The notes below the pieces were generated by a model. It saw nothing but the letters and a program-made list of their open reading frames with translations, was not told where the DNA came from and did no database searches. A program made the translations under genes and the position numbers. From a virus, in IMG/VR virus record IMGVR_UViG_3300044971_004534: 64,000 nucleotides of DNA. One strand, given 5' to 3'. Below are positions 16,508 through 46,767 of this stretch, in pieces; positions within the stretch are counted from its first letter, which is position 1, and each line of letters begins with the position of its first letter.

Positions 16508-16541
16508 CTCTTTTTCCCCCTCCCGAGGGGAGATTGGCGAA
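16508..16541 (+). promoter_or_regulatory. conserved intergenic cassette (candidate phage promoter) copy 1
   Basis: core CTCTTTTTCCCCC 16508-16520; TTG +14..16; A at +21; 57-nt leader to ATG 16598. Confidence 0.55.
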
Positions 16542-16597
16542 AAGCGGCAACGGTCGCTTCCACTACCCAAACTTTGATGTAATCTATCGGCAGTCCC

Positions 16598-17572
16598 ATG
16601 AGCGCAGACTTCAGCCTTCAAGACATCCCCTTTGAGTCACTACCCACGGAGACAGTTCGCAGTCTGTGCGAGATCGCCGTCCGTCACATGGGAAGCAATG
16701 TCCGTTACTACGACCACGGGCTGATTGCTCAGGTTGCCAAGATGGACTATCGCGTTCCTGCGACCATGCGTATCGCTCAGGGGTATGGGTATGGTTCTAC
16801 GAGCGCCGTATGGGGAGCCTTGAGCGAAAACAAGGAAGCGGTTATGACGCTTCTGAACGCTGTGCTTAGTGACCGCAAGGGTGGTTCACAGCGTCATACC
16901 ATGCTTGGCAAGAGCGATATCGCTCCGTCTGTCATCACGAACCCGGACATCTTGTCCTTTGTCTTGAGCGAATCGGACTTTGGCGGTGGTCGCAATGGAA
17001 GCGGCTGCATGGAAAGTCAGGTTTTCGTTCAGGTTACGGACAATCAATGGAACGGGCTTTTTGAGGATCATCCTGCGCTTGTCGCCAAGGCTTTTGCCTC
17101 TCGCCCGTTCCTTCTCAATCGTTTCGTCCGTAATCGTTCTATGCCGAAGGATCGCATCCTGCAAGTTGCAAAGACTGCGCTTGGCTTTACTCATGCGTTC
17201 GACATGGATGCTCCCACCACCCTGAGCCGTGAGGGGCTTTCGGATAGTTCTGTCCGCCCTGACATGGAGGAGATTTACGACGATCTTTTCATGCACATTT
17301 GCACGATCTGCCGCAAGGACAGGGAGAATATGCAGCGCATCAAGGGTGATCTTGACAACCACAGCGTTGGTGGCAAAAAGACCCGCCGCCGTGATGCTGG
17401 CTGGATGACTTCCTACCTGAACGGCAAGTGGGAAGGTGGTCACAAGGATTTCGTGATTCGTACCTGTCGCCTTATTCCGCCTTTTTTCAACCTGATGCAC
17501 AGCAGCGCAAAGGTTTCGGGTGAGATGCGAACCTTGAGGCGGATGTACCAACTAAGTGGAGATGCAAACTGA
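16598..17572 (+). CDS. hypothetical protein
   Basis: ORF track, ATG start. Confidence 0.6.
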   Translation: MSADFSLQDIPFESLPTETVRSLCEIAVRHMGSNVRYYDHGLIAQVAKMDYRVPATMRIAQGYGYGSTSAVWGALSENKEAVMTLLNAVLSDRKGGSQRHTMLGKSDIAPSVITNPDILSFVLSESDFGGGRNGSGCMESQVFVQVTDNQWNGLFEDHPALVAKAFASRPFLLNRFVRNRSMPKDRILQVAKTALGFTHAFDMDAPTTLSREGLSDSSVRPDMEEIYDDLFMHICTICRKDRENMQRIKGDLDNHSVGGKKTRRRDAGWMTSYLNGKWEGGHKDFVIRTCRLIPPFFNLMHSSAKVSGEMRTLRRMYQLSGDAN

Positions 17573-17611
17573 AAAAAGTTTGTAATCTATCAAAAAGCGG
17601 CAAGAATATGC

Positions 17612-17639
17612 TTGCACGATAGCATACACAGGCTATAAT
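17612..17639 (+). promoter_or_regulatory. sigma70-type promoter TTGCAC-N16-TATAAT
   Basis: TTGCAC 17612-17617, TATAAT 17634-17639, 17 nt before ATG 17657. Confidence 0.45.
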
Positions 17640-17656
17640 CACAGGTTGCACTTTTT

Positions 17657-18601
17657 ATGCCACGAACATCAATCCCAGTCGAAGGAATGCTTGGAAGCCT
17701 GAGTCTCAACCGTGAAGTTGAGTTCATGGTCCAAATGCTTGGTTGGAGTGAATCTCAGATTGTAAGCGCAGTCTTGAGCGCACACCCTGAACTGAAGTCA
17801 GATCAACAGTCCCTTATCAACCATATTCGCGTATGCCGTTCACGGTATCGCACAGATCAGAAAGAGAATGCAGAAGTGAGCGCACTTATTGGCGGTGGAA
17901 CGGTCACCTCACTTGACAAGATTGCAGACAAGAAACTTGTCCGCTTTGCTTGTGGTATCGACCACATTGATATGCTGTGGGGTTTTTCAGAAGATGGGAA
18001 GATCAAGGGATTTCCTCGCGGGCAAATCAGCCTGATTGCGGGAAGCCCCGGCGTGGGCAAGACTCGCGCCATGATCGCTGTCTGCGGCAAGATCAGCGCA
18101 CCGGACTATCGACCTGCACTCAAGGCACTTTATTGGCAAAATGAGTTTGCACTTGAGCAGTTCAAGACTGTATCAAAGTCTCAAATCAAGTCAGGCGCAC
18201 GGTTTAGGTGCGGAGACATCCGCTCTTTGAAGGAGCAGTTGAAGGTCGTTGACAAGGAGAAGCCCGATCTTGTCGTGGTTGACTCTATTCAGATGCTTGA
18301 AGAAGCAAAGAACAAGACAGGCATGGAACGCTGCATCGCGGCTTACAAGGCTGCTGCCGTGGAACACAACATCCATGTCGTTCTTGTCGGTCAGTTGAAC
18401 AAGCGCGAACAAGTCGCAGGAAGTCGTGTGTTGGAACATCTTGTGGACTCTGTATTTACGGCAGTTCGTGACCGTGATACGGGAGGATTCGCCATCCGTT
18501 GTACGAAAAACAGATGGGGAATGTCAGGTATCCAAGGTTGCTTCAAGCACACAGCAACGGGCATTGAGCCTGTCGGAGACATCACCCAATCGGAGGATTG
18601 A
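17657..18601 (+). CDS. RadA/Sms-like RecA-superfamily ATPase (no Zn-finger or Lon domain)
   Basis: Walker A GSPGVGKT, Walker B DLVVVDSIQ, RadA-type KNRWG (KNRFG) motif. Confidence 0.75.
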   Translation: MPRTSIPVEGMLGSLSLNREVEFMVQMLGWSESQIVSAVLSAHPELKSDQQSLINHIRVCRSRYRTDQKENAEVSALIGGGTVTSLDKIADKKLVRFACGIDHIDMLWGFSEDGKIKGFPRGQISLIAGSPGVGKTRAMIAVCGKISAPDYRPALKALYWQNEFALEQFKTVSKSQIKSGARFRCGDIRSLKEQLKVVDKEKPDLVVVDSIQMLEEAKNKTGMERCIAAYKAAAVEHNIHVVLVGQLNKREQVAGSRVLEHLVDSVFTAVRDRDTGGFAIRCTKNRWGMSGIQGCFKHTATGIEPVGDITQSED

Positions 18602-18603
18602 AC

Positions 18604-18882
18604 ATGAATAACGAAACAAGTTTGGTAAACAACAAGCCCACATTCAAGCCGCTTCCCATGTACAAGGTGATTGTTCACAACGATGATGTGAACACCTACA
18701 ATCACGTTATTGGGACTTTCATGGAAATCATCAAAATGGACAAGCAGACCGCCCTCCTCAAGACTGTTGAAGTCGATAAGGAAGGGATGTCCGTGGTGTC
18801 CGTGACGCACAAGGAACACGCTGAACTGTTACAGGATCAGTTGAAGTCCAAGGCTCTCACGGTCACTATTGAGCCGGATTGA
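18604..18882 (+). CDS. clpS: ClpS, ATP-dependent Clp protease adaptor
   Basis: PMYKVIVHNDDVNTYNHVIGTFMEI...AELLQDQL is the ClpS core; ATG 18604 6 nt after GGAGGA (ORF track lists TTG 18598). Confidence 0.85.
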   Translation: MNNETSLVNNKPTFKPLPMYKVIVHNDDVNTYNHVIGTFMEIIKMDKQTALLKTVEVDKEGMSVVSVTHKEHAELLQDQLKSKALTVTIEPD

Positions 18883-18894
18883 TTACAAAAGACT

Positions 18895-18966
18895 GCGGTT
18901 GTCGTATAATGGCTATTACGCGGGTTTTCCAAACCCGTCATGGGAGTTCGATCCTCCCCTACCGCA
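18895..18966 (+). tRNA. tRNA-Gly(UCC)
   Basis: Acceptor GCGGTTG/CTACCGC (one mismatch), anticodon stem CGGGT/ACCCG, loop TTTCCAA, T-arm GGGAGTTCGATCCTCCC. Confidence 0.8.
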
Positions 18967-18970
18967 TTCC

Positions 18971-19004
18971 CTCTTTTTCCCCCTCCGGTGGGGGATTTGA
19001 GGGC
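18971..19004 (+). promoter_or_regulatory. conserved intergenic cassette copy 2
   Basis: core CTCTTTTTCCCCC 18971-18983 directly after tRNA-Gly; TTG +14..16; leader with GGAG to ATG 19063. Confidence 0.55.
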
Positions 19005-19062: not shown

Positions 19063-20085
19063 ATGAATCTCGTTGAGAAGATCAAGCGCAACCGCAAGAC
19101 GGGTGTTCCCACCTTCATCTTTGGTGCGCCCGGTGTTGGCAAGTCGCAGATGGTTCATCAGGCAGCGGACGGGGACACCGTGATTGATGTCCGTCTGTCC
19201 ATGCTTGATCCGGTTGACCTGCGTGGTCTGCCGACCGTCAAGCAGAACGGCGATGGTGAGTCCGTGGTTGAGTGGGCGCGTCCTGAGTTCATCCCGGCTG
19301 AAGGCAAGGGCATCATCTTCTTTGATGAGTTGAACACCGCCCCCGCTGCCGTGCAGAACGCTGCGCTTCAGATCATCCTTGATCGCAAGTGTGGTCCGCA
19401 TAAGTTGGGCGATGGTTGGTACATCGTGGCTGCGGGAAACAAGGCTTCCCACAAGGCTCATGTCAACCCGCTCTCCGCACCGCTCCGCAACCGCTTTGCC
19501 GTGGTTGAGTACGAGCCGTCCGTTGAGGCTTGGTCTGCGTGGGCGATGGGTGCGGGAGTTCACGACCATGTGATCGGCTTCCTCAACTTCCGCCCCGGTC
19601 TGCTCACGACCGATCCGAAGGACGAGTACGCCAACTTTGCCTCCCCCCGTTCGTGGGATCGCGTGTCGAAGTTCCTTCAGGCGGGTCTTGACGAGCAGGA
19701 GGACATGGAGCCTCTTGTCGGCAAGGGTGCTGCTGCGGAGTTCACGGCGTATCGGACGGAGATTCGGGATATGCCCGACATTGACGCTCTGATTGCGAAG
19801 AAGGCTGAGTTCAAGGAGAACCCCAAGAAGATCAGCATTTCCTACGCTGTGGCGATGGCTCTCGCTTCCCGCCTGTCCCGTGGTGACAAGAAGTTCGTGA
19901 CCACGAACGCGGATCGGTGCTGTGAGATCGTGTCTGCCCTGTCCCCGGAGATCGCGTGTCTGTTCTTTGTCCGTACTCTCACCTCCGATCCTCATGTCAA
20001 GACCGCTGTGTGTGAGAGCAAGTCTGCTCACAAGTGGGTGCTGACCCATGAGAAGTTGCTGACGAAGTACGGGATCAAGAAGTAA
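19063..20085 (+). CDS. MoxR/CbbQ-like AAA+ ATPase (AAA_5)
   Basis: Walker A GAPGVGKS, Walker B IIFFDELN, TAPAAVQNAALQIILDRK sensor region. Confidence 0.9.
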   Translation: MNLVEKIKRNRKTGVPTFIFGAPGVGKSQMVHQAADGDTVIDVRLSMLDPVDLRGLPTVKQNGDGESVVEWARPEFIPAEGKGIIFFDELNTAPAAVQNAALQIILDRKCGPHKLGDGWYIVAAGNKASHKAHVNPLSAPLRNRFAVVEYEPSVEAWSAWAMGAGVHDHVIGFLNFRPGLLTTDPKDEYANFASPRSWDRVSKFLQAGLDEQEDMEPLVGKGAAAEFTAYRTEIRDMPDIDALIAKKAEFKENPKKISISYAVAMALASRLSRGDKKFVTTNADRCCEIVSALSPEIACLFFVRTLTSDPHVKTAVCESKSAHKWVLTHEKLLTKYGIKK

Positions 20086-20132
20086 TCCCCCCGCAGGAGT
20101 GGGGGGAGGGCGGCAACGCTCTCCCCCTCTCC

Positions 20133-20166
20133 CTCTTTTTCCCCCTTCCCCGAAGGACTTGGGACA
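20133..20166 (+). promoter_or_regulatory. conserved intergenic cassette copy 3 (leaderless class)
   Basis: core 20133-20145; TTG +14..16; ATG 20166 at +21. Confidence 0.55.
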
Positions 20167-21416
20167 TGGCAAAGAAGAAGAACAACTCCACCGCAACCGC
20201 CGCTCCTGCTGCCGACAACGCTCAGGATGTCGGACTCACGCCTTCTGAACTCAACGAACTCCGTGAGCGCATGAAGGGCATCGTGTTCCGTATGTACCGC
20301 TTCTTTCCCTTTTGGGGACTGCTTGCGGAGAACTGCAAGGTGTCGATCAAGTCCGACAAGGATGTTCCGACCGCCTGTGTTGACCGATACGGCAACATCA
20401 GTTTCGGAGCAAAGTTCTTCAAGGACTTGACCGAAGATCAGGCGTTGTTCGTCCTCGCGCATGAGATCGGTCACGCTGCGTTCAGTCACATTGATCGCCG
20501 TCAGAGCCGTGATCCGCTGCTTTGGAATGTTGCGATTGACTACGCCATCAACCTCCTCCTGTCGGACAACTTCAACGATTCCAAGTATCTGCCGAAGGGT
20601 GTCCTGCTTGACAAGAAGTACGCGGGGATGTCCGCTGAGGAGATTTACGAAGATGTCATCCGCAACGCCAAGACCGTGAAGGTCTACACGCTTTCGGGCG
20701 ATGTTGACTACAGCGACAAGGGCGAGGATGGCGATGGCGATGGCGATGGCATCGTGATCCGTGATCGCCGTGCCGAAAAGAAGGGCAACGAGCAGGGTTG
20801 GGATCAGGCAATCGCCTTGAGCCATGCCCGTGCAAAGATGCAGGGCGATATGCCTGAGTCTCTTGATCGTGCCGTGTCGGAGAAGTTGGGCAGCAAGATT
20901 GATTGGCGCGAAGCACTCAAGCAGTACCTCCGCTTTGGCGTGACTCGCATCCTGCGGGATCACTACACCTTCATGCCCCCGAACCGCCGCTTTGTCCATC
21001 AGGGTCTTTACTTGCCGTCCATGTACGGCAACGATGCCCCGAAGATCGGCTTTGCCGTGGACACCTCCGGTTCGATTGGTGAGTCAGAGATGGCTCAGGC
21101 AATCGCTGAGATTGATGAGATTCGCCGTCAGTTCAACTGCCCTCTTTACCTTGTGGAGTGTGATGCGGAAGTCCATGACGGGCGTTGGATCAGTCCCGAT
21201 CAGTCCTGCCCAACGGCGTTCAAGGGCGGCGGCGGAACCGATTTCCGTCCCGTGTTTGACCACCTCAAGGAGCAGAAAGTCCCCGTGGACATTATGGTGT
21301 ACCTCACCGATGGCTACGGCGAGTTTGGAGATCAGCCCGAAGTCGATGTCCTTTGGGTCACGACCACGAATGTCAAGCCGCCTTATGGCGACCACATTCA
21401 AGTGGGTGTGGGCTAA
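20166..21416 (+). CDS. VWA-domain protein with N-terminal zincin-like domain (MoxR partner, DUF2201-like)
   Basis: HEIGHAAFSH (HExxH) and MIDAS DTSGSIG; immediately downstream of the MoxR ATPase. Confidence 0.85.
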   Translation: MAKKKNNSTATAAPAADNAQDVGLTPSELNELRERMKGIVFRMYRFFPFWGLLAENCKVSIKSDKDVPTACVDRYGNISFGAKFFKDLTEDQALFVLAHEIGHAAFSHIDRRQSRDPLLWNVAIDYAINLLLSDNFNDSKYLPKGVLLDKKYAGMSAEEIYEDVIRNAKTVKVYTLSGDVDYSDKGEDGDGDGDGIVIRDRRAEKKGNEQGWDQAIALSHARAKMQGDMPESLDRAVSEKLGSKIDWREALKQYLRFGVTRILRDHYTFMPPNRRFVHQGLYLPSMYGNDAPKIGFAVDTSGSIGESEMAQAIAEIDEIRRQFNCPLYLVECDAEVHDGRWISPDQSCPTAFKGGGGTDFRPVFDHLKEQKVPVDIMVYLTDGYGEFGDQPEVDVLWVTTTNVKPPYGDHIQVGVG

Positions 21417-21446
21417 TATGGGGGACAGGGGCGAAAGCCCCTCTCC

Positions 21447-21480
21447 CTCTTTTTCCCCCTCCGTGGGGGAAGTTGGAGAG
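21447..21480 (+). promoter_or_regulatory. conserved intergenic cassette copy 4
   Basis: core 21447-21459 after hairpin 21427-21442; TTG +14..16; leader with AAGGAG to ATG 21563. Confidence 0.55.
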
Positions 21481-21562
21481 TCAGCCGGATGTTCCGGTTG
21501 ACAGTAGCACTTGAGAGCCACAAACCAAGTCGCATGACTTGTTTAGGTGGCAAGGAGAAAAG

Positions 21563-22213
21563 ATGGCTAACACCATCAGCAACGCATCGGTCGTCGTCAG
21601 CAACGCTCAGGCTCACGCCCTGATCCGTACCTCCCTCGCTAAGAGCGGTTCGTGCAAGACGATGAAGGGTAACTCCACGGCTGACACCATGTTGGTGGAC
21701 AAGTCGCGTGGTGAGAAGTACGCCATTGACGCGACCGTTCGCATGACGGGAACGATCAGCGTGGAGCAGAACGGCACGATCAAGAAGCGTCTTGATCGGT
21801 TCAAGTTGTTCACTCAGGCTGTCATCAATCTGACTCGTCAGGGTGCGCCCATCAACAAGGCTCTCATCATCGGTGAGATGGATCGCCTGTGGACGCTTCA
21901 CAAGGACAACCGTGACCTCAAGCAGATCGACAGCGAGACTTTCGATTCTGTCCTTGGGGAACTCTTTGGACGGGATTTCTGCGACCGGATGTACGCTCCG
22001 GTTGACGAGTCCGCTCCGAAGGCGGGTGACTTCAGCGTGAGCGACCTCAGCATCGACATCCTCAACTCCATCGTTGGGGCTGTCGGGTCGGAGAATCCCG
22101 CTGTGTGGAACATCACTCCCACTCCGGTTGCAGCCGTCACTCATGCTGCGGGTGGACCGCAGAATGATGCGGATGCTAAGAACAGCAAGCCTGTTCGCAG
22201 GAAGCGGAAGTGA
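21563..22213 (+). CDS. hypothetical protein
   Basis: ATG 21563 after CAAGGAGAAAAG, frame of ORF-track 21539..22213. Confidence 0.6.
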   Translation: MANTISNASVVVSNAQAHALIRTSLAKSGSCKTMKGNSTADTMLVDKSRGEKYAIDATVRMTGTISVEQNGTIKKRLDRFKLFTQAVINLTRQGAPINKALIIGEMDRLWTLHKDNRDLKQIDSETFDSVLGELFGRDFCDRMYAPVDESAPKAGDFSVSDLSIDILNSIVGAVGSENPAVWNITPTPVAAVTHAAGGPQNDADAKNSKPVRRKRK

Positions 22214-22263
22214 CCAATAATCGGGCGGGGAGTGGGGGTAAAACCCCCTCCCCGTTCGATACG

Positions 22264-22297
22264 CTCGTTTTCCCCCTTCCCTCTTTAGGTTGGGGTA
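22264..22297 (+). promoter_or_regulatory. conserved intergenic cassette copy 5
   Basis: core CTCGTTTTCCCCC 22264-22276; TTG +14..16; A at +21. Confidence 0.5.
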
Positions 22298-22340: not shown

Positions 22341-22368
22341 TTGACACAAATAAGAAGCGTTCTATGAT
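22341..22368 (+). promoter_or_regulatory. sigma70-type promoter TTGACA-N16-TATGAT
   Basis: TTGACA 22341-22346, TATGAT 22363-22368, upstream of 22450. Confidence 0.45.
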
Positions 22369-22449: not shown

Positions 22450-23121
22450 ATGAAGAACAGCAACACGGGCATGGTTCTTGCCCCGAACCCGGCTGACATC
22501 ATCAGCCGTCAGTTGAAGTTGGACCGCAACACTTTCCTTCAGGCTGTCAACCTCTACAACTCGCTGACGCAGTTGGATCAGTCAGCGACGGTTGCCGCCC
22601 CGAACGAAGGTGGCGAGGAGGACACGGGCAAGCGTGGTCCCGGTCGCCCGAAGGGGTCGAAGAACCGGAAGCCCGGTCGCCCGAAGGCGAAGCGTGGTCC
22701 CGGTCGCCCGAAGAAGAAGCGTGGTCCGGGTCGCCCCAAGGCGAAGAAGGGTCCGGGTCGCCCCGCTGCCAAGCGTGGTCCCGGTCGCCCGAAGGGGTCG
22801 GTTGCCAAGCGCAAGACGGTGAAGGGTGGCGCAACCGCCTCTCGCCGTGGTCGCAAGGCGAAGAACCCGAACGGCATGACCATGCGCGATGCGGTCACTA
22901 ACGCTCTCCGCAACGCCAATGGTCCGGTGAAGGCTCCTGCCATCGCTGAAACCCTCAAGGGTCAGGGCTTTACGAGCAAGTCGCTCAACACTCAGGTGGC
23001 TCAGGAGTTGAGCCGCATGGTGACTGATGGACTTGCCAGCCGCCCTGAGCGTGGTTCGTATGCTTGGTCGGGCAGCAACGCCCCGGCAGAGCAGACGGCT
23101 GAAGTCGCTCAGACCGCCTGA
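22450..23121 (+). CDS. AT-hook repeat DNA-binding protein with C-terminal H1/winged-helix-like domain
   Basis: Seven GRP cores: KRGPGRPKG, KPGRPKA, KRGPGRPKK, KRGPGRPKA, KKGPGRPAA, KRGPGRPKG...; nucleotide repeat GGTCCCGGTCGCCCGAAG. Confidence 0.8.
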   Translation: MKNSNTGMVLAPNPADIISRQLKLDRNTFLQAVNLYNSLTQLDQSATVAAPNEGGEEDTGKRGPGRPKGSKNRKPGRPKAKRGPGRPKKKRGPGRPKAKKGPGRPAAKRGPGRPKGSVAKRKTVKGGATASRRGRKAKNPNGMTMRDAVTNALRNANGPVKAPAIAETLKGQGFTSKSLNTQVAQELSRMVTDGLASRPERGSYAWSGSNAPAEQTAEVAQTA

Positions 23122-24302: not shown

Positions 24303-24311
24303 TTCAGCAAG

Positions 24312-39723: not shown

Positions 39724-39761
39724 CGACGGAATGGGGTGGCGGGATGAAATACTCCCGCCGC

Positions 39762-39795
39762 CTCGTTTTCCCCCTGCCCGAAAGGACTTGGAGCA
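39762..39795 (+). promoter_or_regulatory. conserved intergenic cassette copy 24 (leaderless class)
   Basis: core 39762-39774 after hairpin 39738-39759; TTG +14..16; ATG 39795 at +21. Confidence 0.55.
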
Positions 39796-40229
39796 TGAGC
39801 AACTCAACCTACGAGCGCGAAACGGACATCATCCTCAACGGTATCTCCCTGAAGTCCGCACCGGGCTGGAAGATCGACCTGACCCTGAAGGTCAAGTACG
39901 AGTGGGTGCGTGGCGGCATCGGAGCCTACGAGTTCTGGGGAGCGCGTGGTGTGGACATCGGTGGCGGATGGGAGTGGGTGGAGTACGGCGTTGAAGGCAT
40001 CAAGGCTTCCAACGACAGCGGAACCGTACTGACCGCTACCAACAGCCAACAGTTCAACCCGGATTTCGTCAGCGGTGTTCTCTCTGACTACGGGATCAAC
40101 CTGTACGAATGGCTGAACGAGATCAACGACAGCGAGATCATCCAAGACATGATTATCGACAAGTGTCCTGATTGGACTGACCCCCGCTATGACGGGATGC
40201 CCGATGACAACTCACCTGATGGAGACTGA
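39795..40229 (+). CDS. hypothetical protein
   Basis: ATG 39795 in frame of ORF-track 39744..40229. Confidence 0.6.
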   Translation: MSNSTYERETDIILNGISLKSAPGWKIDLTLKVKYEWVRGGIGAYEFWGARGVDIGGGWEWVEYGVEGIKASNDSGTVLTATNSQQFNPDFVSGVLSDYGINLYEWLNEINDSEIIQDMIIDKCPDWTDPRYDGMPDDNSPDGD

Positions 40230-40230
40230 T

Positions 40231-40431
40231 ATGGAACCCAAGTACCCAAACATCACCGTGCAACTGGTTGGACAGGACGGCAACGCTTTCGCCATTCTTG
40301 GTCGCGTTCAGAGGGAAATGAAGCGTGGCGGCGTTCCTCGCAACGAGATCGACAACTTCATGTCAGAGGCAACGAAGGGCAACTACGATGAACTTCTTGT
40401 CACCGTTATGAAGTGGGTGGAAGTGGAGTAA
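40231..40431 (+). CDS. small hypothetical protein (66 aa)
   Basis: ATG 40231 after GGAG, abuts previous stop; frame of ORF-track 40189..40431. Confidence 0.6.
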   Translation: MEPKYPNITVQLVGQDGNAFAILGRVQREMKRGGVPRNEIDNFMSEATKGNYDELLVTVMKWVEVE

Positions 40432-40440: not shown

Positions 40441-40474
40441 CTCGTTTTCCCCCACCGAAGGAGGTGTTGCATCG
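40441..40474 (+). promoter_or_regulatory. conserved intergenic cassette copy 25 (leaderless class, GTG)
   Basis: core 40441-40453; TTG +14..16; GTG 40474 at +21. Confidence 0.5.
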
Positions 40475-40872
40475 TGGACGCAAAGCACCCGATCAGAAAC
40501 TTGGTATACGAACGCATGACAACTCTCGCATCGTGCACCGTAGGAACGATTGATGTCCTCAACGAGATGCTCCCATCTCTTGAGAATGACGAGATCGACC
40601 CAAACGCGATTGCGTTTCAGACGGATGAGTTCCGTGCGATGATGAAGGAGACCTACAGCGGTCAGCACATTGCTATGGTTCTGTATCCGAACGGACAGAC
40701 CATGCACCGCAGGTTCTACTGTTGGTATGTCAGCACCGAACACAACAAGAGCGGAAATGCGTGGATGATCCTCACCCACCGACATCCCGACTTGTTCACG
40801 AAGGGCAAGATCATGCGACCTGATGACTTCACAAAGAGCATGGCACTGCTTCAGACGATGGAAACCAAGTGA
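40474..40872 (+). CDS. hypothetical protein
   Basis: ORF track (GTG start). Confidence 0.55.
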   Translation: MDAKHPIRNLVYERMTTLASCTVGTIDVLNEMLPSLENDEIDPNAIAFQTDEFRAMMKETYSGQHIAMVLYPNGQTMHRRFYCWYVSTEHNKSGNAWMILTHRHPDLFTKGKIMRPDDFTKSMALLQTMETK

Positions 40873-41455: not shown

Positions 41456-41489
41456 CTCGTTTTCCCCCTTCCCCGGTGGGGTTGCGGTG
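41456..41489 (+). promoter_or_regulatory. conserved intergenic cassette copy 26
   Basis: core 41456-41468; TTG +14..16; leader with GAAAGGA to ATG 41532. Confidence 0.55.
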
Positions 41490-41531
41490 TTGCCCGCCGT
41501 GGGCAGCAGACGCAACAAGAAAGGACGAACG

Positions 41532-41960
41532 ATGACGATGACGAAGATCAGCCTCGATGTGAAGTCGAAGGGTGCTGCGGAGATCGTGAAGGAACTCCTC
41601 AACCTCCCCGAAGGCTTCACCTCCGGTCGCGTGGAAGTGGCGTTCAACTTCACCGCCGACAAGGGTGCGGACGAGACTTACACCGCCGTGCAGGAACTCT
41701 GCCCGTGGACGCTCGTGGCGGTTCTCATGTCCAAGATCAACGGGGTTACGCAGGATGCCGTGATCGACTGCATCCCCACGATCATGGAGATGAACGACAA
41801 GCAGCGCAAGGTGCTGCGCGAGTCGCTGAAGGAGTCCACCACGAAGCGGCTTGAGGAGATGGGCGCATTCGTGCAGAAGGTGCGCTCCGGCAAGACGCGC
41901 ATCGAAGTGGCGGGCGATGCCACCGTGACGGGGGATAACCTCCCGGTCGCAACCGCCTAA
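41532..41960 (+). CDS. hypothetical protein
   Basis: ATG 41532 in frame of ORF-track 41487..41960. Confidence 0.6.
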   Translation: MTMTKISLDVKSKGAAEIVKELLNLPEGFTSGRVEVAFNFTADKGADETYTAVQELCPWTLVAVLMSKINGVTQDAVIDCIPTIMEMNDKQRKVLRESLKESTTKRLEEMGAFVQKVRSGKTRIEVAGDATVTGDNLPVATA

Positions 41961-42001
41961 CAGACCCCCGGAACGGAGGGGAGGCAAGTAGTGCGCCTCC
42001 C

Positions 42002-42035
42002 CTCTTTTTCCCCCTCAACCGGAGTATTTGCGGCA
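42002..42035 (+). promoter_or_regulatory. conserved intergenic cassette copy 27 (leaderless class)
   Basis: core 42002-42014 overlapping hairpin 41976-42004; TTG +14..16; ATG 42035 at +21. Confidence 0.55.
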
Positions 42036-42148
42036 TGGACACAATCATCCTCATGCTCATCGGATCGAACCTTGCCTTGATTGGCTACCTGTGCCACAAG
42101 GACATGAAGGGCAAGCGCAGCAAGTCGCGCAGGAAGGCAACGGCGTGA
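42035..42148 (+). CDS. small membrane protein (37 aa)
   Basis: Hand-translated MDTIILMLIGSNLALIGYLCHKDMKGKRSKSRRKATA; start fixed by cassette geometry; GTGA overlap with next gene. Confidence 0.4.
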   Translation: MDTIILMLIGSNLALIGYLCHKDMKGKRSKSRRKATA

Positions 42149-42456
42149 AGTCGAACCCTTACATTCAGATGCTTGAACCTCTCATCGGTGGAACGATCAC
42201 GAAGATCATCTACGATGAAAGCGACCCGCATGGTGATCCGTTCTGCGGCTTCATCGTGACGCGACCCGAAGCCGTGTATCAGGTGATTGCCTTGCGTGAT
42301 CCCGAAGGCAACGGAGCCGGGTTCGTGGAAGTGACGAAGGTAAGAACTTGGCTGAAGGACACTTGCGACAAGTGTGGCGGACTGATCAACGGGATTGACA
42401 AGTTCCCCGCAGTTGGTACAATGGGCGTACCGATCTGCACAGATTGCGACAACTAA
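42145..42456 (+). CDS. hypothetical protein
   Basis: GTG 42145 after AGGAAGG, frame of ORF-track 42028..42456. Confidence 0.5.
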   Translation: MKSNPYIQMLEPLIGGTITKIIYDESDPHGDPFCGFIVTRPEAVYQVIALRDPEGNGAGFVEVTKVRTWLKDTCDKCGGLINGIDKFPAVGTMGVPICTDCDN

Positions 42457-42502
42457 TCCTTTCTGCGAAGGGAGTGCGTTCCGAAGTGAATGCGCTCCCT
42501 TC

Positions 42503-42536
42503 CTCTTTTTCCCCCTGTTCCCCGCCTCTTGGGTTG
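42503..42536 (+). promoter_or_regulatory. conserved intergenic cassette copy 28
   Basis: core 42503-42515 after hairpin 42467-42502; TTG +14..16; leader with AAAGGAG to ATG 42554. Confidence 0.55.
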
Positions 42537-42553: not shown

Positions 42554-42805
42554 ATGGGTTACAAGCAGATTGGTCGCCTCATCGTTTCGCAAGATGAGAG
42601 CGAGTGGATTGACATCAAGCGTCCGTGTGTCGTGACGGGTGAACCGTACAGCGTCAGCGTTCGCCGCACCGATTGGGATGCGTGGAAGGGCGGCAAGTTG
42701 GCGCAACTTGCGTTCCCTTACCTCTCCCGCGAGGATCGTGAGTTCATCATCAGCGGAACCAGCCCGCAAGGTTGGGAGGAGTTGTTTGGAGGTAACGATG
42801 AGTGA
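42554..42805 (+). CDS. hypothetical protein
   Basis: ATG 42554 in frame of ORF-track 42395..42805. Confidence 0.6.
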   Translation: MGYKQIGRLIVSQDESEWIDIKRPCVVTGEPYSVSVRRTDWDAWKGGKLAQLAFPYLSREDREFIISGTSPQGWEELFGGNDE

Positions 42806-42938: not shown

Positions 42939-42986
42939 TCTTCTTGCGTCCTGCGGGGCGGGGTACTTCCTTTCCCCCGCCCCGCT

Positions 42987-43020
42987 ATCTTTTTCCCCCT
43001 TTGCCGACAAACTTCTAGCA
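42987..43020 (+). promoter_or_regulatory. conserved intergenic cassette copy 29 (leaderless class)
   Basis: core ATCTTTTTCCCCC 42987-42999 after hairpin 42953-42985; TTC at +14..16 (variant); ATG 43020 at +21. Confidence 0.5.
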
Positions 43021-43244
43021 TGGACAAGAGAACTTCCCCCATCAACGGTCTGTACCTCCACGATGTCTACACCGATGCTGCCCGCATCAAGTCGTGCTTC
43101 CCGTGGGCTGATGTGAAGCCCGGAATGGAGATGGAGTGCTGGTCTACTCCGTTCAACTTCCCGTCGCCCACCGATTTCAACATCCTCATGCTGCGAGACA
43201 TGAACGGCGAACTGATCGCCACGAAGCGCGAGGAGGGTTACTAA
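43020..43244 (+). CDS. hypothetical protein
   Basis: ORF track. Confidence 0.55.
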   Translation: MDKRTSPINGLYLHDVYTDAARIKSCFPWADVKPGMEMECWSTPFNFPSPTDFNILMLRDMNGELIATKREEGY

Positions 43245-43247: not shown

Positions 43248-43281
43248 CTCTTTTTCCCCCACCGTGGTAGACTTTTGGGCA
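43248..43281 (+). promoter_or_regulatory. conserved intergenic cassette copy 30
   Basis: core 43248-43260 after hairpin 43233-43250; TTG +15..17; A 43281 at +21; GAAAGGA leader to ATG 43299. Confidence 0.5.
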
Positions 43282-43298: not shown

Positions 43299-43487
43299 AT
43301 GGCTGAACTGCGAGTCACGATCAACCTGAACAACGACGCCTTCCATGTGGACGAGTTCAACGAGGTGTCCCGCGTCTTTGAGAGTCTTGCGCGCAAGGTG
43401 GCGCGAGGCGACATGAGGAACCACGCCATCATGGACTCCAACGGCAACACGGTCGGTTCGTTCACCGTGATTGACGAGGATGCGTGA
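43299..43487 (+). CDS. hypothetical protein
   Basis: ATG 43299 in frame of ORF-track 43275..43487. Confidence 0.55.
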   Translation: MAELRVTINLNNDAFHVDEFNEVSRVFESLARKVARGDMRNHAIMDSNGNTVGSFTVIDEDA

Positions 43488-43834: not shown

Positions 43835-43868
43835 CTCGTTTTCCCCCTGCCTCGCACCGCTTGGGGCA
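43835..43868 (+). promoter_or_regulatory. conserved intergenic cassette copy 31
   Basis: core 43835-43847; TTG +14..16; A 43868 at +21; leader GAAAGGAAACTC to ATG 43881. Confidence 0.55.
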
Positions 43869-43880: not shown

Positions 43881-44198
43881 ATGCAGCCCAAGTATGTGAA
43901 CCTCACCGACAAGCCCGCTGACTACTCCGACAACAACGGTCACGGTCAGCCCACCCACCTCCAGTCGCGTAGCACCGGAAGGTGGATCAAGACTCCCGAT
44001 GGCTACTGCCGTCGTGACGATGGCATCATCTCCCACAAGTACCTCAAGAACGAGGAAGGCGAGTGGGAGTGGTTCCCCGTCCCGTCTACGGAGGAACTCA
44101 ACTTCATGGCGTTCGACTCCGTGTGCCAAACGCCGTGGGGCGACGATGTGGAACCCGATCACCCCAAGTCGTGGCTCCGCATCTTGGGAATGATCTGA
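43881..44198 (+). CDS. hypothetical protein
   Basis: ORF track. Confidence 0.6.
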   Translation: MQPKYVNLTDKPADYSDNNGHGQPTHLQSRSTGRWIKTPDGYCRRDDGIISHKYLKNEEGEWEWFPVPSTEELNFMAFDSVCQTPWGDDVEPDHPKSWLRILGMI

Positions 44199-44250
44199 AC
44201 CCCCGGAAGGGATGGGGGAGTTGATGGCAACATCCTCCCCTGTCCTTCCT

Positions 44251-44284
44251 CTCGTTTTCCCCCAGTCGGGTAGTTTTTCGGGCA
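44251..44284 (+). promoter_or_regulatory. conserved intergenic cassette copy 32
   Basis: core 44251-44263; TTC at +14..16 (variant); A 44284 at +21; GAAAGG leader to ATG 44302. Confidence 0.5.
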
Positions 44285-44301: not shown

Positions 44302-44523
44302 ATGAACGACACCCTCCTCAGCATCTTCATGGCTTGCGACACGATCAAGGCGACCATCCTTGAGAACGCTCAACTCAAGGAGGAGAATGCTCAACTCCGT
44401 GAGCGCATCAAGGCGGCTGACGCTGCGCGTGATGAGGGATTCCGTTCTGCGGAGCGGTATCACGAGGAGATGGTGAAGTCCCTGCTCAGCGGGGAACTCA
44501 TCGTCAACAGGGGAGGAAACTAG
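44302..44523 (+). CDS. hypothetical coiled-coil protein
   Basis: ATG 44302 in frame of ORF-track 44212..44523. Confidence 0.55.
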   Translation: MNDTLLSIFMACDTIKATILENAQLKEENAQLRERIKAADAARDEGFRSAERYHEEMVKSLLSGELIVNRGGN

Positions 44524-44531: not shown

Positions 44532-44565
44532 CTCGTTTTCCCCCTTCCCCGCTCCCGTTAGGACA
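44532..44565 (+). promoter_or_regulatory. conserved intergenic cassette copy 33
   Basis: core 44532-44544; TTA +14..16; A 44565 at +21; leader hairpin GCCCC-aaa-GGGGC plus GAAAGGA to ATG 44596. Confidence 0.55.
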
Positions 44566-44595
44566 CAGCCCCAAAGGGGCAGAAAGGATCGCAAG

Positions 44596-44958
44596 ATGAA
44601 GAAGATGCTCGTTATCAAGATGAACGGTCAGGTGGAGGAGCGCGAGAACACGGGTCTGGAGTCCCTCCAGTCGGGTGTCGGTGGCTGGATCGAAGGCATC
44701 GACTTGGGCAACGGCGCGATGATGTACTGCAACGAGGAGGGCAAGTGCAACGGTCTGCCCGCTAACCTCGTCGCTACGCGCCTCTACGAGAACGCATTCG
44801 GCAAGGGCATCGACATCGTCGTGGGCGATGTGGTCATCGTCGGCTACATCTCCCCCTCCGGTGAGAACGACGGCGAGGACTACGACTACCCCGCGTGGGT
44901 GTCGGACGCAGCACGCAAGGAAGCGGAAGCGTTCGCACCGCGCTGCACGGTGTCGTGA
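44596..44958 (+). CDS. DUF3846-like protein
   Basis: LQSGVGGWIEGIDL...YCNEEGKCNGLPAN matches my memory of DUF3846. Confidence 0.65.
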   Translation: MKKMLVIKMNGQVEERENTGLESLQSGVGGWIEGIDLGNGAMMYCNEEGKCNGLPANLVATRLYENAFGKGIDIVVGDVVIVGYISPSGENDGEDYDYPAWVSDAARKEAEAFAPRCTVS

Positions 44959-44995
44959 ACAAGAGAAGGGGAGGGAGTCGAAAGGCTCCCTCCCT

Positions 44996-45029
44996 CTCTT
45001 TTTCCCCTCGCACCGCACTGCTTGGGGCA
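44996..45029 (+). promoter_or_regulatory. conserved intergenic cassette copy 34
   Basis: core CTCTTTTTCCCCT 44996-45008 after hairpin 44968-44995; TTG +14..16; A 45029 at +21; GAAAGGA leader to ATG 45047. Confidence 0.55.
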
Positions 45030-45046: not shown

Positions 45047-45217
45047 ATGGGTAAGGGAATGATTCGAATCGCCGTAGTGATCTGTGTGGCGTTCACCGTG
45101 TCTGCCGCCATCATGTGGGCATTCATCAACTGGCTAGACGCCAATCCCGTAGTGGTGGCTGGGTTCCTTGGAATGGGCTACGCAAGCAACCATTTCTTCA
45201 ACCCACCGCGCCGCTAG
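45047..45217 (+). CDS. small membrane protein (56 aa)
   Basis: ATG 45047 in frame of ORF-track 44828..45217; IRIAVVICVAFTVSAAIMWAF helix. Confidence 0.45.
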   Translation: MGKGMIRIAVVICVAFTVSAAIMWAFINWLDANPVVVAGFLGMGYASNHFFNPPRR

Positions 45218-45277: not shown

Positions 45278-45311
45278 CTCTTTTTCCCCTCCCCGCCAAG
45301 CCGTTGGAACA
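45278..45311 (+). promoter_or_regulatory. conserved intergenic cassette copy 35
   Basis: core CTCTTTTTCCCCT 45278-45290; TTG +14..16; A 45311 at +21; GAAAGGA leader to ATG 45325. Confidence 0.55.
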
Positions 45312-45324: not shown

Positions 45325-45552
45325 ATGAACGAAGAATGGTGGAAGAACACCAAGCCAGACCCGGTCAGGAGTGGCTACAGCGTGGTCGATACGGTCACGC
45401 TGGAGGAACGCGAACTCTCCGTACATGACGCAAACCACCGCTTGCAGCAGGAATGCAACTCCCTGCGGGCGAAACTGCGAAACATGGAGGAGCAGATCAA
45501 GAAGTTGCAGATCGAACGCGACCTGCTCATGCAGATCGTTCTCAAGAAGTAA
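45325..45552 (+). CDS. hypothetical coiled-coil protein
   Basis: ATG 45325 in frame of ORF-track 45115..45552. Confidence 0.55.
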   Translation: MNEEWWKNTKPDPVRSGYSVVDTVTLEERELSVHDANHRLQQECNSLRAKLRNMEEQIKKLQIERDLLMQIVLKK

Positions 45553-45580: not shown

Positions 45581-45614
45581 CTCGTTTTCCCCCTCTCCCT
45601 CCCCTCTTGGGGAG
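45581..45614 (+). promoter_or_regulatory. conserved intergenic cassette copy 36
   Basis: core 45581-45593 after hairpin 45553-45581; TTG +14..16; GAAAGGA leader to ATG 45633. Confidence 0.55.
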
Positions 45615-45632
45615 CAGAAAGGAAGAAACGCC

Positions 45633-45791
45633 ATGAAGTCAGTCGTAGACATCGCTCGCAAGATCGCGTGGGAGACTCGCAGGGACGAGATCGCTGCGGG
45701 TCGTCGCGTCCGCTCCAAGACTTGGGGCAAGAAGTCGCGTGATCCCCGCAAGGCACGACGCGAAAGCAGGCGCGAACTCTCGCGTATGTAG
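45633..45791 (+). CDS. small basic protein (52 aa)
   Basis: ATG 45633 in frame of ORF-track 45453..45791. Confidence 0.45.
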   Translation: MKSVVDIARKIAWETRRDEIAAGRRVRSKTWGKKSRDPRKARRESRRELSRM

Positions 45792-45810
45792 AGCGCGCCC
45801 AAGCAGCCGC

Positions 45811-45844
45811 CTCGTTTTCCCCCTGCCCCGCTCCCGTTGGGTCA
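45811..45844 (+). promoter_or_regulatory. conserved intergenic cassette copy 37
   Basis: core 45811-45823; TTG +14..16; A 45844 at +21; leader hairpin plus GAAAGGA to ATG 45875. Confidence 0.55.
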
Positions 45845-45874
45845 GCCCCAAAGGGGCAGAAAGGACGCTGCAAC

Positions 45875-46078
45875 ATGAAGAAGCAGCACGACGCGGGTTT
45901 CGGGTGCATGGGGGACACGGTGGAGGTGGAGGCGCGTGTGACCGGCAAGGGCGGGCGGTCGTGGACGAGCCTCGACCGCAAGGTGGAGGCGGAGGGGCAG
46001 AGCCTCGCCTACATGGGTCGCCTGTGGTTCTGCGGCAAGGTCTGGGAATGCCCGACCCCTGAAACCGCCCTCGCCTGA
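45875..46078 (+). CDS. hypothetical protein
   Basis: ORF track. Confidence 0.55.
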   Translation: MKKQHDAGFGCMGDTVEVEARVTGKGGRSWTSLDRKVEAEGQSLAYMGRLWFCGKVWECPTPETALA

Positions 46079-46149
46079 AGCGGCGGAACCGTCCCCGAAG
46101 GGGAGCCGAAAGCGGCTCCCCTTCCTCATTTGGTGAACTAGGCAGCCGT

Positions 46150-46183
46150 ATCGTTTTCCCCCTGCCTCGCTCCCGTTGTGGTG
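46150..46183 (+). promoter_or_regulatory. conserved intergenic cassette copy 38
   Basis: core ATCGTTTTCCCCC 46150-46162; TTG +14..16; leader hairpin GCCCC-aac-GGGGC plus GAAAGGA to ATG 46216. Confidence 0.55.
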
Positions 46184-46215
46184 TAGCCCCAACGGGGCAG
46201 AAAGGATACGCAAGA

Positions 46216-46698
46216 ATGGACAAGCAGCAGAAGATGTCGGCTCTCGCGCAGATCATCGGGAGCAACCCGCAGAAGGCGGAGTTCGCGGCGAGCCTCCTGG
46301 GTGCGCTGGCGAAGGGCAACCCGACCCCCAAGCAGGCGGAGTGGATCGACCGCCTCATCAACGAGGAAGCGAACCCCGTCCCGTCGCTCACGCTCGCCCC
46401 GCTCGTGGAGGCGTTCCGCGCAGCGGCGCAGGCGGTCAAGTTCCCGAAGGTCGTCGTGGAGGCTGACGGCGTGGAGTGGACGCTCTCGTACACTCGCCCC
46501 GACTCCGACAAGGCGAAGCCCGAGAACAAGGACACGGTGGGCATCGCATCGGGCAAGTGGGGCGACCCCGCCGCGAAGTGGGCAGGGCGCATCCTCGCGG
46601 ATGGCACGGTGAAGTGGGGCAAGGACGCGACCCCCGCTCTCGCGGACGCCATCGCCGCCATCCCGACCGCTCCGCTCCCCCTCAAGACGCGGAAGTGA
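46216..46698 (+). CDS. hypothetical protein
   Basis: ORF track. Confidence 0.6.
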   Translation: MDKQQKMSALAQIIGSNPQKAEFAASLLGALAKGNPTPKQAEWIDRLINEEANPVPSLTLAPLVEAFRAAAQAVKFPKVVVEADGVEWTLSYTRPDSDKAKPENKDTVGIASGKWGDPAAKWAGRILADGTVKWGKDATPALADAIAAIPTAPLPLKTRK

Positions 46699-46733
46699 AC
46701 AGCGGAGGGGCGGGAGTCGAAAGGCTCCCGCCC

Positions 46734-46767
46734 CTCGTTTTCCCCCTGCACCGCACCCGTTGTGGTG
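46734..46767 (+). promoter_or_regulatory. conserved intergenic cassette copy 39
   Basis: core 46734-46746 after hairpin 46707-46734; TTG +14..16; same leader as copy 38 to ATG 46798. Confidence 0.55.

Follow-up and report, generated by a model that had tools for sequence, protein, structure and literature searches.

Phage-specific promoter regulons are known in T7, N4, SPO1, T4, and phiKZ. Here, we describe 39 copies of a bipartite motif, each a candidate promoter, on one strand of a 64,000-nucleotide (nt) viral sequence, IMG/VR record IMGVR_UViG_3300044971_004534. This whole stretch of DNA is referred to as the window, and the motif block extends from position 16508 to position 46767. We consider it probable that the 39 sites are phage-specific promoters at which transcription starts at, or within about 2 nt of, the position 21 nt after a run of C residues that closes the motif core (core end +21). 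As a promoter class, they match none of the five systems named above in sequence or geometry.

T7-type promoters are contiguous elements of about 23 bp, reaching from -17 to +6, and start with G (GGG or GGA). Among the promoters of T7, T3, SP6, and K11, the start-proximal part is kept and the upstream specificity part is replaced. N4 has only a few hairpin promoters. The middle promoters of T4 are read through sigma appropriation by MotA/AsiA, in which an activator box replaces the -35 element and the -10 hexamer of sigma-70 is kept. The middle and late genes of the Thermus phage phiYS40 are leaderless. T4-like phages also contain promoter-early stem-loop (PeSL) cassettes, which are repeats of a terminator hairpin and a promoter (PMC2839356, PMC4122927). 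The early promoters of phiKZ are read by an injected virion RNA polymerase and consist of an AT-rich extended -10 box with T-rich sequence upstream of -19; leaderless transcripts were not observed in that phage (PMC8244752). In Deinococcus-Thermus, -10 elements abut open reading frames (ORFs) (PMC12340547), and intergenic repeats of the halovirus HF2 carry promoters (PMC8707807).

A first-pass annotation of the window, made from the sequence alone, had listed 39 plus-strand copies of the motif at 16508-46767. The core 13-mer CTCKTTTTCCCCC was scanned on both strands with up to one mismatch allowed, and this recovered 37 of these copies at the listed coordinates, where 0.23 matches would be expected by chance. 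The other two, at 33526 and 38498, read GACTTTTTCCCCC (a GAC start instead of CTC) and have the same downstream element as the rest. A position weight matrix of 36 columns was built from -34 to +2, with +1 being the A at core end +21. All 39 sites scored 24.6-48.2 bits, and every other position on both strands of the 64 kb scored below 12 bits. The scores of the sites and of the rest of the window are, therefore, cleanly bimodal. The restriction to the plus strand and the lack of copies in 1-16.4 kb and 47-64 kb, both claimed earlier, were borne out by the matrix. Furthermore, TTTTCCCC was not found in the 10 kb upstream (contig L017) or the 10 kb downstream (contig L013) of the window in the same genome. 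A single minus-strand near-match with one mismatch, CTCGTTTTCCCCA at 15971-15983, lies inside ORF 15749-16468, lacks the TTG and CA described below, and scores below 12 bits. It was set aside as probably a chance match.

The motif has three parts. The upstream block, CTC(G/T)TTTTCCCCC at -33 to -21, is almost invariant across the 39 copies. It is followed by a 13-bp spacer of free sequence and by a start-proximal element, TTG-n-GGC, at -7 to -1. Information content is maximal at -33 to -21 and at -7 to -5, moderate at -3 to +1 (GGC-A), and low between. The counts given for the second element in the first-pass annotation were exact: at +14 to +16 after the C-run, 31 copies have TTG and 4 have TTA, with CTG, TTC, TTT, and TTC in the remaining four. 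The CA at +20/+21 also stands, with C at +20 in 67% and A at +21 in 77% of the copies.

One line of evidence on the start point is the distance between the predicted +1 and the first plausible start codon. This distance is 0 nt in 18 of the 39 copies (17 ATG and 1 GTG), and one further start-codon call is ambiguous at -2 (copy 41456). The other leaders measure 9, 13 (three copies), 14, 18 (four copies), 19, 31 (four copies), 33, 48, 49, 57, and 59 nt, and no copy has a distance of 1-8 nt. Leaders of at least 13 nt, which are nearly all of them, carry a Shine-Dalgarno sequence. The shortest typical leaders (13-14 nt) read A-GAAAGGA-AACTC-ATG, with the Shine-Dalgarno sequence AGAAAGGA beginning at the predicted 5' end. 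Such all-or-nothing spacing would result from a fixed 5' end, because a gene must either start at that end or leave space for a ribosome-binding site. About half of the transcripts would then be leaderless, with the A of the ATG as +1. The Pfam match of the DUF6915 protein, one of the predicted leaderless products, starts at residue 2, in line with a start codon at +1.

Related phages support the same start point with different sequences. Six lineages were reached through homologues of the window's DUF932 protein: L163 (80% identical to that of the window), L165 (75%), L005-L008 (71%; L006 used), L167 (59%), L009-L012 (57%; L011 used), and L168 (39%). Gene order is common to the window and all six. 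The window motif was present in none of them; each has its own same-strand repeat of 12-35 bp that ends at the same place, in front of orthologous genes. Anchored on leaderless ATGs, the consensus sequences are CTCkTTTTCCCCC (-33 to -21) ... TTG-nGGC-A for the window, CGTAAAGTTCCCCCATaAGACGAAAGCCTAGnGC-A for L163, GnAGAAAATCCCCCtnGCATCGGaGAtgCTAGAG..-A for L165, CCCGAAnCCCGAAAACTGGAacGggGTTAGGgc-A for L006, AGTTTTCAGC..agGgATAaaCTA for L167, TTtcatcGgg.gAATAAAcTAAtc for L011, and AAAATGCATAAt for L168. A run of five C residues at about -25 to -21 is common to three lineages, GTTTTC to two, and a Y-T-R(-G) element at about -7 to -4 to four, suggesting that the motifs are diverged versions of one ancestral element. 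Conservation is contiguous over about 35 bp in L163 and L165, and the upstream block of L167 and L011 lies at -28 to -17.

In the six lineages, start codons again lie either at the inferred +1 (8, 13, 4, 4, 2, and 10 genes) or at least 12 nt downstream of it, with very few exceptions. The DUF6915 gene starts at +1 in five lineages, the window and four others, under five different motifs, and seven further genes keep their start at +1 in two or three lineages. In L167 and L011, TAAACT or TAnnnT lies exactly at -12 to -7 before leaderless ATGs. This is the classical distance of a -10 element and, therefore, independently places the start at that A. Two of the relatives' motifs were also scanned in IMG/VR, where they were clustered on one strand of viral contigs of 75 kb, 95 kb, and 147 kb. 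Phages with 60-80% identical proteins, some of them in one lake sample, have mutually unrelated upstream elements. Contigs L010 and L013, with unrelated motifs (the TTTCATCGGG-AATAAACTA type and the window type, respectively), both come from JGI sample 3300042945, which indicates that divergent specificities coexist in one community.

Every computational test that was run favours a start at core end +21 and supports the bipartite promoter proposed in the first-pass annotation. The promoter would extend from about -33 to +1, initiation would occur at the A 21 nt after the C-run, and half of the transcripts would be leaderless, the remainder having leaders of 9-59 nt. Four points weigh against this reading or against parts of it. 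The first is that +1 is a position predicted from the sequence.

The second concerns the spacers. In the 19 copies with a start codon at +1 (or at -2 in copy 41456), the spacer (-19 to -5) contains Shine-Dalgarno-like GGAG, AGGA, or GGAGG stretches located 8-10 nt before the predicted leaderless start codon (for example, at 33539-33553, 37003-37017, and 40454-40468). Computed with a generic anti-Shine-Dalgarno sequence, the mean duplex energy of the spacers is -6.5 kcal/mol for leaderless copies versus -2.2 kcal/mol for leadered copies and -2.8 kcal/mol for background (p = 0.003). Strongly leadered copies have C-rich spacers. A Shine-Dalgarno sequence in the spacer would matter only on transcripts that start further upstream. 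We interpret these stretches as a provision for translating read-through transcripts from upstream promoters, since most leaderless junctions have no terminator. Alternatively, the real 5' end could lie upstream of -15, and the spacers are the strongest argument for such a position. An upstream start is disfavoured by the exact coincidence at +21, by the retention of TTG-GGC-A in copies whose ATG is far downstream, and by the -10-like hexamers of L167 and L011. The possibility that TTG-GGCA is a mere ribosome-binding feature was rejected, as it is equally conserved where the start codon lies 13-59 nt further downstream. The G-rich spacer as a ribosome-binding feature is kept as a caveat.

The third point concerns the reader of the sites. 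About 80 ORFs sampled from the window and 20 kb of flanking sequence, together 84 kb out of no less than 406 kb of genome, were searched in about 110 ORF-by-library comparisons with Pfam, PHROGs, and NCBIfam, and four PDB sequence searches were run. The three libraries gave no match to an RNA polymerase, a sigma factor, MotA, or AsiA among these ORFs. The PDB searches agreed, and the earlier statement that no polymerase or sigma gene is recognisable in the window was upheld for the sampled ORFs. Nor was any of these proteins seen in the relatives' flanking genes and precomputed annotations. The fourth point applies to one form of the reader: the element at -7 to -1 is nearer to the start than any -10 element of the sigma-70 family, which weakens a sigma-like reader for the window's own lineage.

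The motif is also distinct from a second promoter class in the window. Six sites, all on the plus strand, match TTGACA-N16/17-TATAAT at 11 of 12 positions, versus 0.6 expected on both strands of the 64 kb: 1716-1744, 2925-2953, 6105-6133, 22341-22368, 23539-23567, and 42395-42422. Five of them read TTGACA-N16/17-TAnnnT. They include the three sites reported in the first-pass annotation (1716, 2925, and 23539), which had contrasted them with the motif, rightly according to our data. In the 39 sites, positions -12 to -8 hold less than 0.6 bit each and -11 is G in 62%; only the T at -7 fits a sigma-70 -10 element. Since -12 to -8 is uninformative and -11 is mostly G, the motif is not such an element. 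In the left part of the window, the sigma-70-type sites lie ahead of small genes; others precede the tRNA/tmRNA island at 22.3-25.9 kb. They are almost absent from the relatives' blocks. These six sites suggest that the host probably has ordinary promoters and that the motif is something else.

The sites are likely to be read by a phage-encoded or phage-redirected determinant, because of their very high information content, the lineage-specific turnover of the motif, and the presence of two lineages in one sample. This specificity determinant would be phage-encoded and would co-evolve rapidly with the promoter sequence. In the form that we prefer, although it falls a little short of an even call, it would be sigma-like or an adaptor and would guide a multisubunit RNA polymerase. 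This form is preferred because of the C-1/A+1 start, the bipartite architecture, the free spacer, and the TAAACT at -12 to -7 in two lineages. T4 MotA/AsiA may be the nearest working analogy for such a reader. As in T4 middle promoters, a phage-specific box takes the place of a -35 element upstream of a second element. In L167 and L011, where the T4 geometry is matched in part, this second element is a sigma-70-like TAAACT at -12 to -7. In contrast to T4, the window lineage has no TAnnnT at -12 to -7, its upstream block lies at -33 to -21, and no MotA/AsiA homologue was detected with Pfam among the ORFs tested.

Another explanation, unlikely in our view but the best of the alternatives, is that a self-contained phage RNA polymerase uses the sites as its promoters, being either a single-subunit enzyme, as in T7 and N4, or a non-canonical multisubunit or two-barrel enzyme, as in phiKZ, AR9, and crAss-like phages. 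Such an enzyme could be synthesised early or enter the cell together with the DNA, and it would act independently of the host polymerase. Several features resemble those of the T7 group. The copies within a genome are near-identical and form a class apart from host-type promoters, with extreme conservation: 13 bases are invariant in the window, and the conserved stretch is about 35 bp long in L163 and L165. Relatives swap the upstream specificity part and keep the start-proximal part, the Y-T-R(-G) at about -7 to -4. The element at -7 to -1, together with the contiguous 35-bp conservation of L163 and L165, also follows the T7 pattern. However, the window promoter consists of two parts separated by a free 13-bp spacer and extends to -33, in contrast to the contiguous -17 to +6 of T7; its start is C-1/A+1 and not the G start of T7-type enzymes; and many of its predicted transcripts are leaderless. 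In addition, no polymerase gene, including one of the PF00940 type, was found in the 84 kb sampled, the two largest unannotated proteins (899 and 1042 aa) have no catalytic DxDxD in their shared domain, and a canonical -10-like hexamer is present at -12 to -7 in two lineages.

In L165, the sequence GCATC-GGA-GATGC forms a potential hairpin with a 5-bp stem and a 3-nt loop centred at about -13, a geometry that recalls the promoters of the N4 virion polymerase. Hairpin potential is not conserved across the lineages or the 39 copies, and an N4-like hairpin was rejected as a family feature: the mean folding z-score of -34 to +1 is -1.05 in the window and -1.1 to +1.0 in the six relatives, and only L165 among them has a fixed hairpin. 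As a separate observation, the inverted repeat of L165 (ERZ27265268 k141_1506949) is present in all 29 motif copies of that lineage at -19 to -7, and it is also a textbook CsrA-type site with GGA in the loop. CsrA homologues are encoded near the block in L017 (2959-3144), L009-L012 (17302-17493), L167 (6905-7114), and L168 (19024-19224).

Like phiKZ, the phage of the window is a giant phage in which a single conserved motif recurs dozens of times, largely on the same strand, where small genes begin and independently of host-type promoters. One promoter per small gene, as in the early regions of phiKZ, would suit a self-contained polymerase (PMC8244752). In contrast to the phiKZ promoters, the motif here is C- and GC-rich (a run of five C residues and TTG), and half of its genes are predicted to be leaderless. 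Leaderless mRNAs of the Thermus type are similar in that the start codon coincides with the predicted transcription start and in that the TAnnnT of L167 and L011 ends 6 nt before the ATG. They differ in that the window class has no -10 hexamer and mixes leaderless and Shine-Dalgarno-led genes under one promoter. HF2 offers a precedent for conserved intergenic repeat families that proved to be promoters, but it is an archaeal virus with AT-rich, TATA-like motifs and no sequence or mechanistic relationship to the motif.

A sequence-specific phage endoribonuclease that cuts long polycistronic transcripts at C^A, leaving leaderless or short-leader ends, would also produce a fixed 5' end and hence the spacing of 0 or at least 12 nt. 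The Shine-Dalgarno-like sequences upstream of the cut suggest that transcripts covering the spacer are probably made, and the upstream hairpins could protect 3' ends after cleavage. This explanation is quite improbable. Copy 1 heads the plus-strand block 40 nt from a divergent gene start at 16468. It is the sole conserved promoter candidate between 16468 and ORF 16598, with no sigma-70-like site nearby, which leaves no upstream promoter for a precursor. Twelve copies follow very stable hairpins with T-run terminators that would end precursors, the -10-like hexamer in two lineages is at the correct distance for initiation there, and no nuclease candidate was found among the ORFs sampled.

The hairpins raise the question of whether the motif is mainly a terminator tail and/or a repeat at recombination or cassette boundaries that is maintained by gene conversion and does not itself act as a promoter. 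A hairpin of -15 kcal/mol or stronger that ends at the motif T-run lies upstream of 17 of the 39 copies, compared with 16% of random control positions in the block. Its 3' arm ends at the motif, so that CTCTTTTT supplies the T-run. Twelve copies have a hairpin of -20 kcal/mol or stronger, all on the plus strand. Nine of these hairpins adjoin their copies after copy 3: copy 4 (21420-21449, -23.5 kcal/mol), copy 6 (25846-25889, -31.3 kcal/mol), copy 17 (35930-35962, -30.1 kcal/mol), copy 24 (39733-39764, -23.8 kcal/mol), copy 27 (41976-42004, -20.7 kcal/mol), copy 28 (42467-42502, -26.4 kcal/mol, 15 pairs), copy 29 (42953-42985, -27.0 kcal/mol), copy 34 (44963-44998, -26.7 kcal/mol), and copy 39 (46705-46736, -32.8 kcal/mol). 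The hairpin that adjoins copy 3 itself (20096-20132, -32.6 kcal/mol) is GC-rich, with the motif T-run as a putative U-tract, and two hairpins lie upstream of copy 5 (22220-22260, -34.2 kcal/mol) and copy 32 (44208-44247, -25.9 kcal/mol). Promoter-plus-leader modules of 66-82 nt are duplicated (families D5 and D7), and the PeSLs of T4-like phages mediate cassette shuffling (PMC4122927).

A role as terminator or boundary repeat and nothing else is nevertheless very improbable. The GC-rich hairpin and T-run of an intrinsic terminator are not found at every copy, as 22 of the 39 have no hairpin of -15 kcal/mol or stronger upstream. Neither the fixed phase of TTG and CA nor the 18 start codons that fall exactly at +21 would be explained, and PeSLs are themselves promoters, so that a recombination role adds to a promoter function. 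Like PeSLs, the sites are composite repeats in one orientation that flank small, variable genes, mostly of unknown function, and are repeated enough to serve as recombination points. The hairpin part of the likeness holds for about one third to one half of the copies. PeSL promoters differ in being host sigma-70 early promoters, which the motif is not. On the promoter reading, the T-run of the motif would double as the U-tract of an intrinsic terminator wherever a GC-rich hairpin precedes it, and the block would be a chain of compact terminator-promoter-gene cassettes. A side observation concerns the 82-nt module at 44532-44612, 45811-45891, 46150-46230, and 46734-46814, which contains the promoter, a 5'-proximal hairpin (AGCCCCAAAGGGGCA), and the Shine-Dalgarno sequence given above. 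This suggests a recent duplication of promoter-leader cassettes with stabilising 5' stem-loops.

Finally, reading by a host alternative sigma factor, with lineage differences that reflect different hosts, would fit the bipartite architecture and the C-1/A+1 start but is highly improbable, because cellular sigma regulons do not typically have 30 bits or more of near-invariant sequence, one sample yielded contigs of two lineages whose motifs differ, and scans for the exact motif gave only 3 isolated, apparently chance matches in the IMG/VR collection scanned, which does not include this phage, and, among the matches listed, almost only isolated single ones in a metagenome collection. We know of no sigma family that the element positions at -33 to -21 and -7 to -5 would fit.

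Our literature search found no description of the motif sequence or of a comparable motif in huge phages. Should the sites be promoters as proposed, they would fix the transcription start to the nucleotide, and also the correct start codon, for about 40 genes of this phage that lack a functional annotation, and the same would apply to its relatives. A huge phage would have a second, private promoter class beside host-type promoters, with leaderless translation on a large scale. Seven specificities among related phages would imply very rapid joint evolution of promoter and reader. This bears on how related phages avoid transcriptional cross-talk and could offer orthogonal expression parts. The terminator-promoter cassettes would be a route for shuffling accessory genes, as PeSLs are in T4-like phages. 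The main interest lies in the scale of predicted leaderless expression, the seven diverged specificities among related huge phages, and the reader. The reader should co-vary with the motif across the seven lineages, which makes it a concrete target. A bolder proposal, which is possible but rather doubtful, is that huge freshwater phages have an undescribed transcription system: a polymerase or sigma-like factor without detectable similarity to known families, promoters of about 35 bp that diversify fast, routine leaderless mRNAs, and at least seven probably orthogonal promoter/reader pairs that separate the transcription of related phages in co-infection.

All 39 copies lie at gene boundaries, and almost every boundary in the block has one. 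Relative to the stop codon of the preceding plus-strand ORF, 35 copies fall in a range from 36 nt before it to 72 nt past it. Of the other four, two follow tRNA genes at a distance of 0-4 nt, one is placed 63 nt within the 3' end of a gene whose successor overlaps it, and copy 1 is at the divergent junction. The claim that every copy precedes a plus-strand ORF holds for 38 of the 39. It fails for copy 5 (22264-22297), which has no ORF within 130 nt and is followed by the sigma-70-like promoter at 22341 and then by ORF 22450-23121. In the coordinates that follow, each copy ends at its predicted +1.

The predicted leaderless genes begin with copy 3 (20133-20166), whose ATG opens a DUF2201/VWA metallopeptidase-like gene at 20166-21416. 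Copy 7 (26830-26863, a TTA variant) overlaps the last 23 nt of uvdE and opens an RCC1-like gene (26863-27975), and copy 8 (28286-28319) adjoins tRNA-Leu(taa) and opens ORF 28319-29029. A series of ATGs at +1 follows with copy 9 (29035-29068; ORF 29068-30270, DUF4116), copy 10 (30274-30307, a TTA variant; the DUF6915 gene 30307-30726), copy 11 (31107-31140; ORF 31140-31850), copy 12 (31855-31888; ORF 31888-32217), copy 13 (32809-32842; ORF 32842-33090), and copy 14 (33526-33559, the first GACTTTTTCCCCC variant; ORF 33559-34086). Copy 15 (34023-34056) lies within the last 63 nt of the upstream gene and opens the DUF6011 gene (34056-34766). Copy 17 (35962-35995) opens ORF 35995-36465, and copy 18 (36429-36462) overlaps the 3' end of that upstream gene and opens ORF 36462-36638. 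The remaining copies with ATG at +1 are copy 20 (36990-37023; ORF 37023-37508), copy 22 (38498-38531, the second GACTTTTTCCCCC variant; a 3'-5' exonuclease-like gene, 38531-39118), copy 24 (39762-39795; ORF 39795-40229), copy 27 (42002-42035; the 37-codon ORF 42035-42148), and copy 29 (42987-43020, an ATC.. and TTC variant; ORF 43020-43244). Copy 25 (40441-40474) has GTG at +1 of ORF 40474-40872. The ambiguous call is copy 26 (41456-41489), where a GTG at -2 begins ORF 41487-41960.

Among the leadered copies, copy 1 (16508-16541) reads CTCTTTTTCCCCC-N13-TTG and has a 57-nt leader before ORF 16598-17572. Copy 2 (18971-19004) begins 4 nt after tRNA-Gly and has a 59-nt leader before a MoxR-like AAA ATPase gene (19063-20085). 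Copy 4 (21447-21480) precedes ORFs 21489-21623 and 21539-22213, and copy 6 (25890-25923) has a 13-nt leader before the UvdE gene (25936-26853). The DUF932 gene (34908-35927) follows copy 16 (34826-34859, a TTA variant) with a 49-nt leader. Copy 19 (36508-36541), with CTG instead of TTG, is the weakest site at about 24.7 bits and has a 48-nt leader before ORF 36589-36981. Leaders of 31 nt separate copy 21 (37517-37550) from ORF 37581-37961 (DUF4259), copy 33 (44532-44565, a TTA variant) from the DUF3846 gene (44596-44958), copy 37 (45811-45844) from ORF 45875-46078, and copy 39 (46734-46767), the last copy, from ORF 46798-47061. Those of copies 33 and 37 carry the 5' hairpin and the Shine-Dalgarno sequence. 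Copy 38 (46150-46183, an ATC.. variant) has a 33-nt leader before ORF 46216-46698.

The other leaders are short. Copy 23 (39132-39165) has the 13-nt leader AGAAAGGAAACTC before the DUF1281_C gene (39178-39723), and copy 31 (43835-43868) has one of the same length before ORF 43881-44198. Leaders of 18 nt are predicted for copy 28 (42503-42536; ORF 42554-42805, a small protein conserved in 7 lineages), copy 30 (43248-43281, a TTT variant; ORF 43299-43487), copy 32 (44251-44284, a TTC variant; ORF 44302-44523), and copy 34 (44996-45029, a ..CCCCT variant; ORF 45047-45217). Copy 35 (45278-45311), also a ..CCCCT variant, has 14 nt before ORF 45325-45552, and copy 36 (45581-45614) has 19 nt before ORF 45633-45791.

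Megablast and tblastn against GenBank phages gave no nucleotide match and no close relative of the window. Its proteins were found on freshwater metagenomic contigs of 113 kb, 240 kb, and 406,003 bp, which indicates that the window is part of an uncultured huge phage with the genome size given above. UvdE homologues, used for host inference, gave only 33-37% matches to unrelated bacteria. The motif block (16.5-46.8 kb) encodes a KaiC/DnaB-like ATPase, the MoxR-like ATPase, the DUF2201/VWA protein, UvdE, RCC1-like proteins, and the exonuclease, together with DUF932, DUF6915, DUF6011, DUF1281_C, DUF3846, and DUF4259 proteins and many small proteins without a family match. The best phage matches of the DUF2201/VWA protein are 30-36% identical and come from phages of about 78 kb. 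The top match (36%) is in Thermus phage phiFa, which encodes its own RNA polymerase, a point of likeness with N4, and in which the window motif was not found. Small proteins without functional annotation at 42554-42805, 23619-23909, and 40189-40431 are conserved in 5-7 phage lineages and are candidates for core functions of the block, regulators included. The second of these, a 96-aa protein, lies behind the sigma-70-like promoter at 23539. One of the sigma-70-type sites, at 42395, falls within the motif block shortly upstream of the terminator hairpin at 42467-42502 and could give rise to a very short transcript.

A tmRNA is encoded at 23948-24305 on the plus strand (Rfam, 85.9 bits; tag peptide ANESLMAVAA), and seven tRNAs are located at 11527, 18894, 23432, 24651, 28114, 28201, and 30783. 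Motif copies are found throughout the block except in the tRNA-Arg/tmRNA/tRNA-Met island (22.3-25.9 kb), which has sigma-70-like promoters and two strong terminators (24312-24339 and 25469-25504). Upstream of the plus-strand ORF 22450-23121 lie a motif copy (22264) and a sigma-70-like promoter (22341). This ORF encodes a 223-aa protein with seven AT-hook-like GPGRPK repeats, which derive from tandem repeats of 27 nt at 22672-22794. The C-terminal domain of the protein has a weak similarity to the DNA-binding domain of Rok, a nucleoid protein of B. subtilis (PDB 5zuz, E = 0.03).

Outside the block, two overlapping paralogous genes on the plus strand (57305-60004 and 59958-63086) encode the 899- and 1042-aa proteins, which have coiled coils and share a conserved C-terminal domain (..FNIAIYPKK..GLNFH..GWxGG..EIQSDVMQ..). 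Neither had a Pfam or PHROG match; the 899-aa protein had no NCBIfam match, and the 1042-aa protein had no PDB-sequence or GenBank-phage match. In a relative of the L006 lineage (L020, IMGVR_UViG_3300018050_001860), the region at 11652-13965, just downstream of the motif block, encodes a glucose-6-phosphate dehydrogenase and a 2-hydroxyacid dehydrogenase, which are host-like metabolic genes. The GC content of the window is 47-53% at 1-16 kb, 50-60% over the motif block, with a peak of 60% at 44-46 kb, and 32-37% at 54-64 kb.

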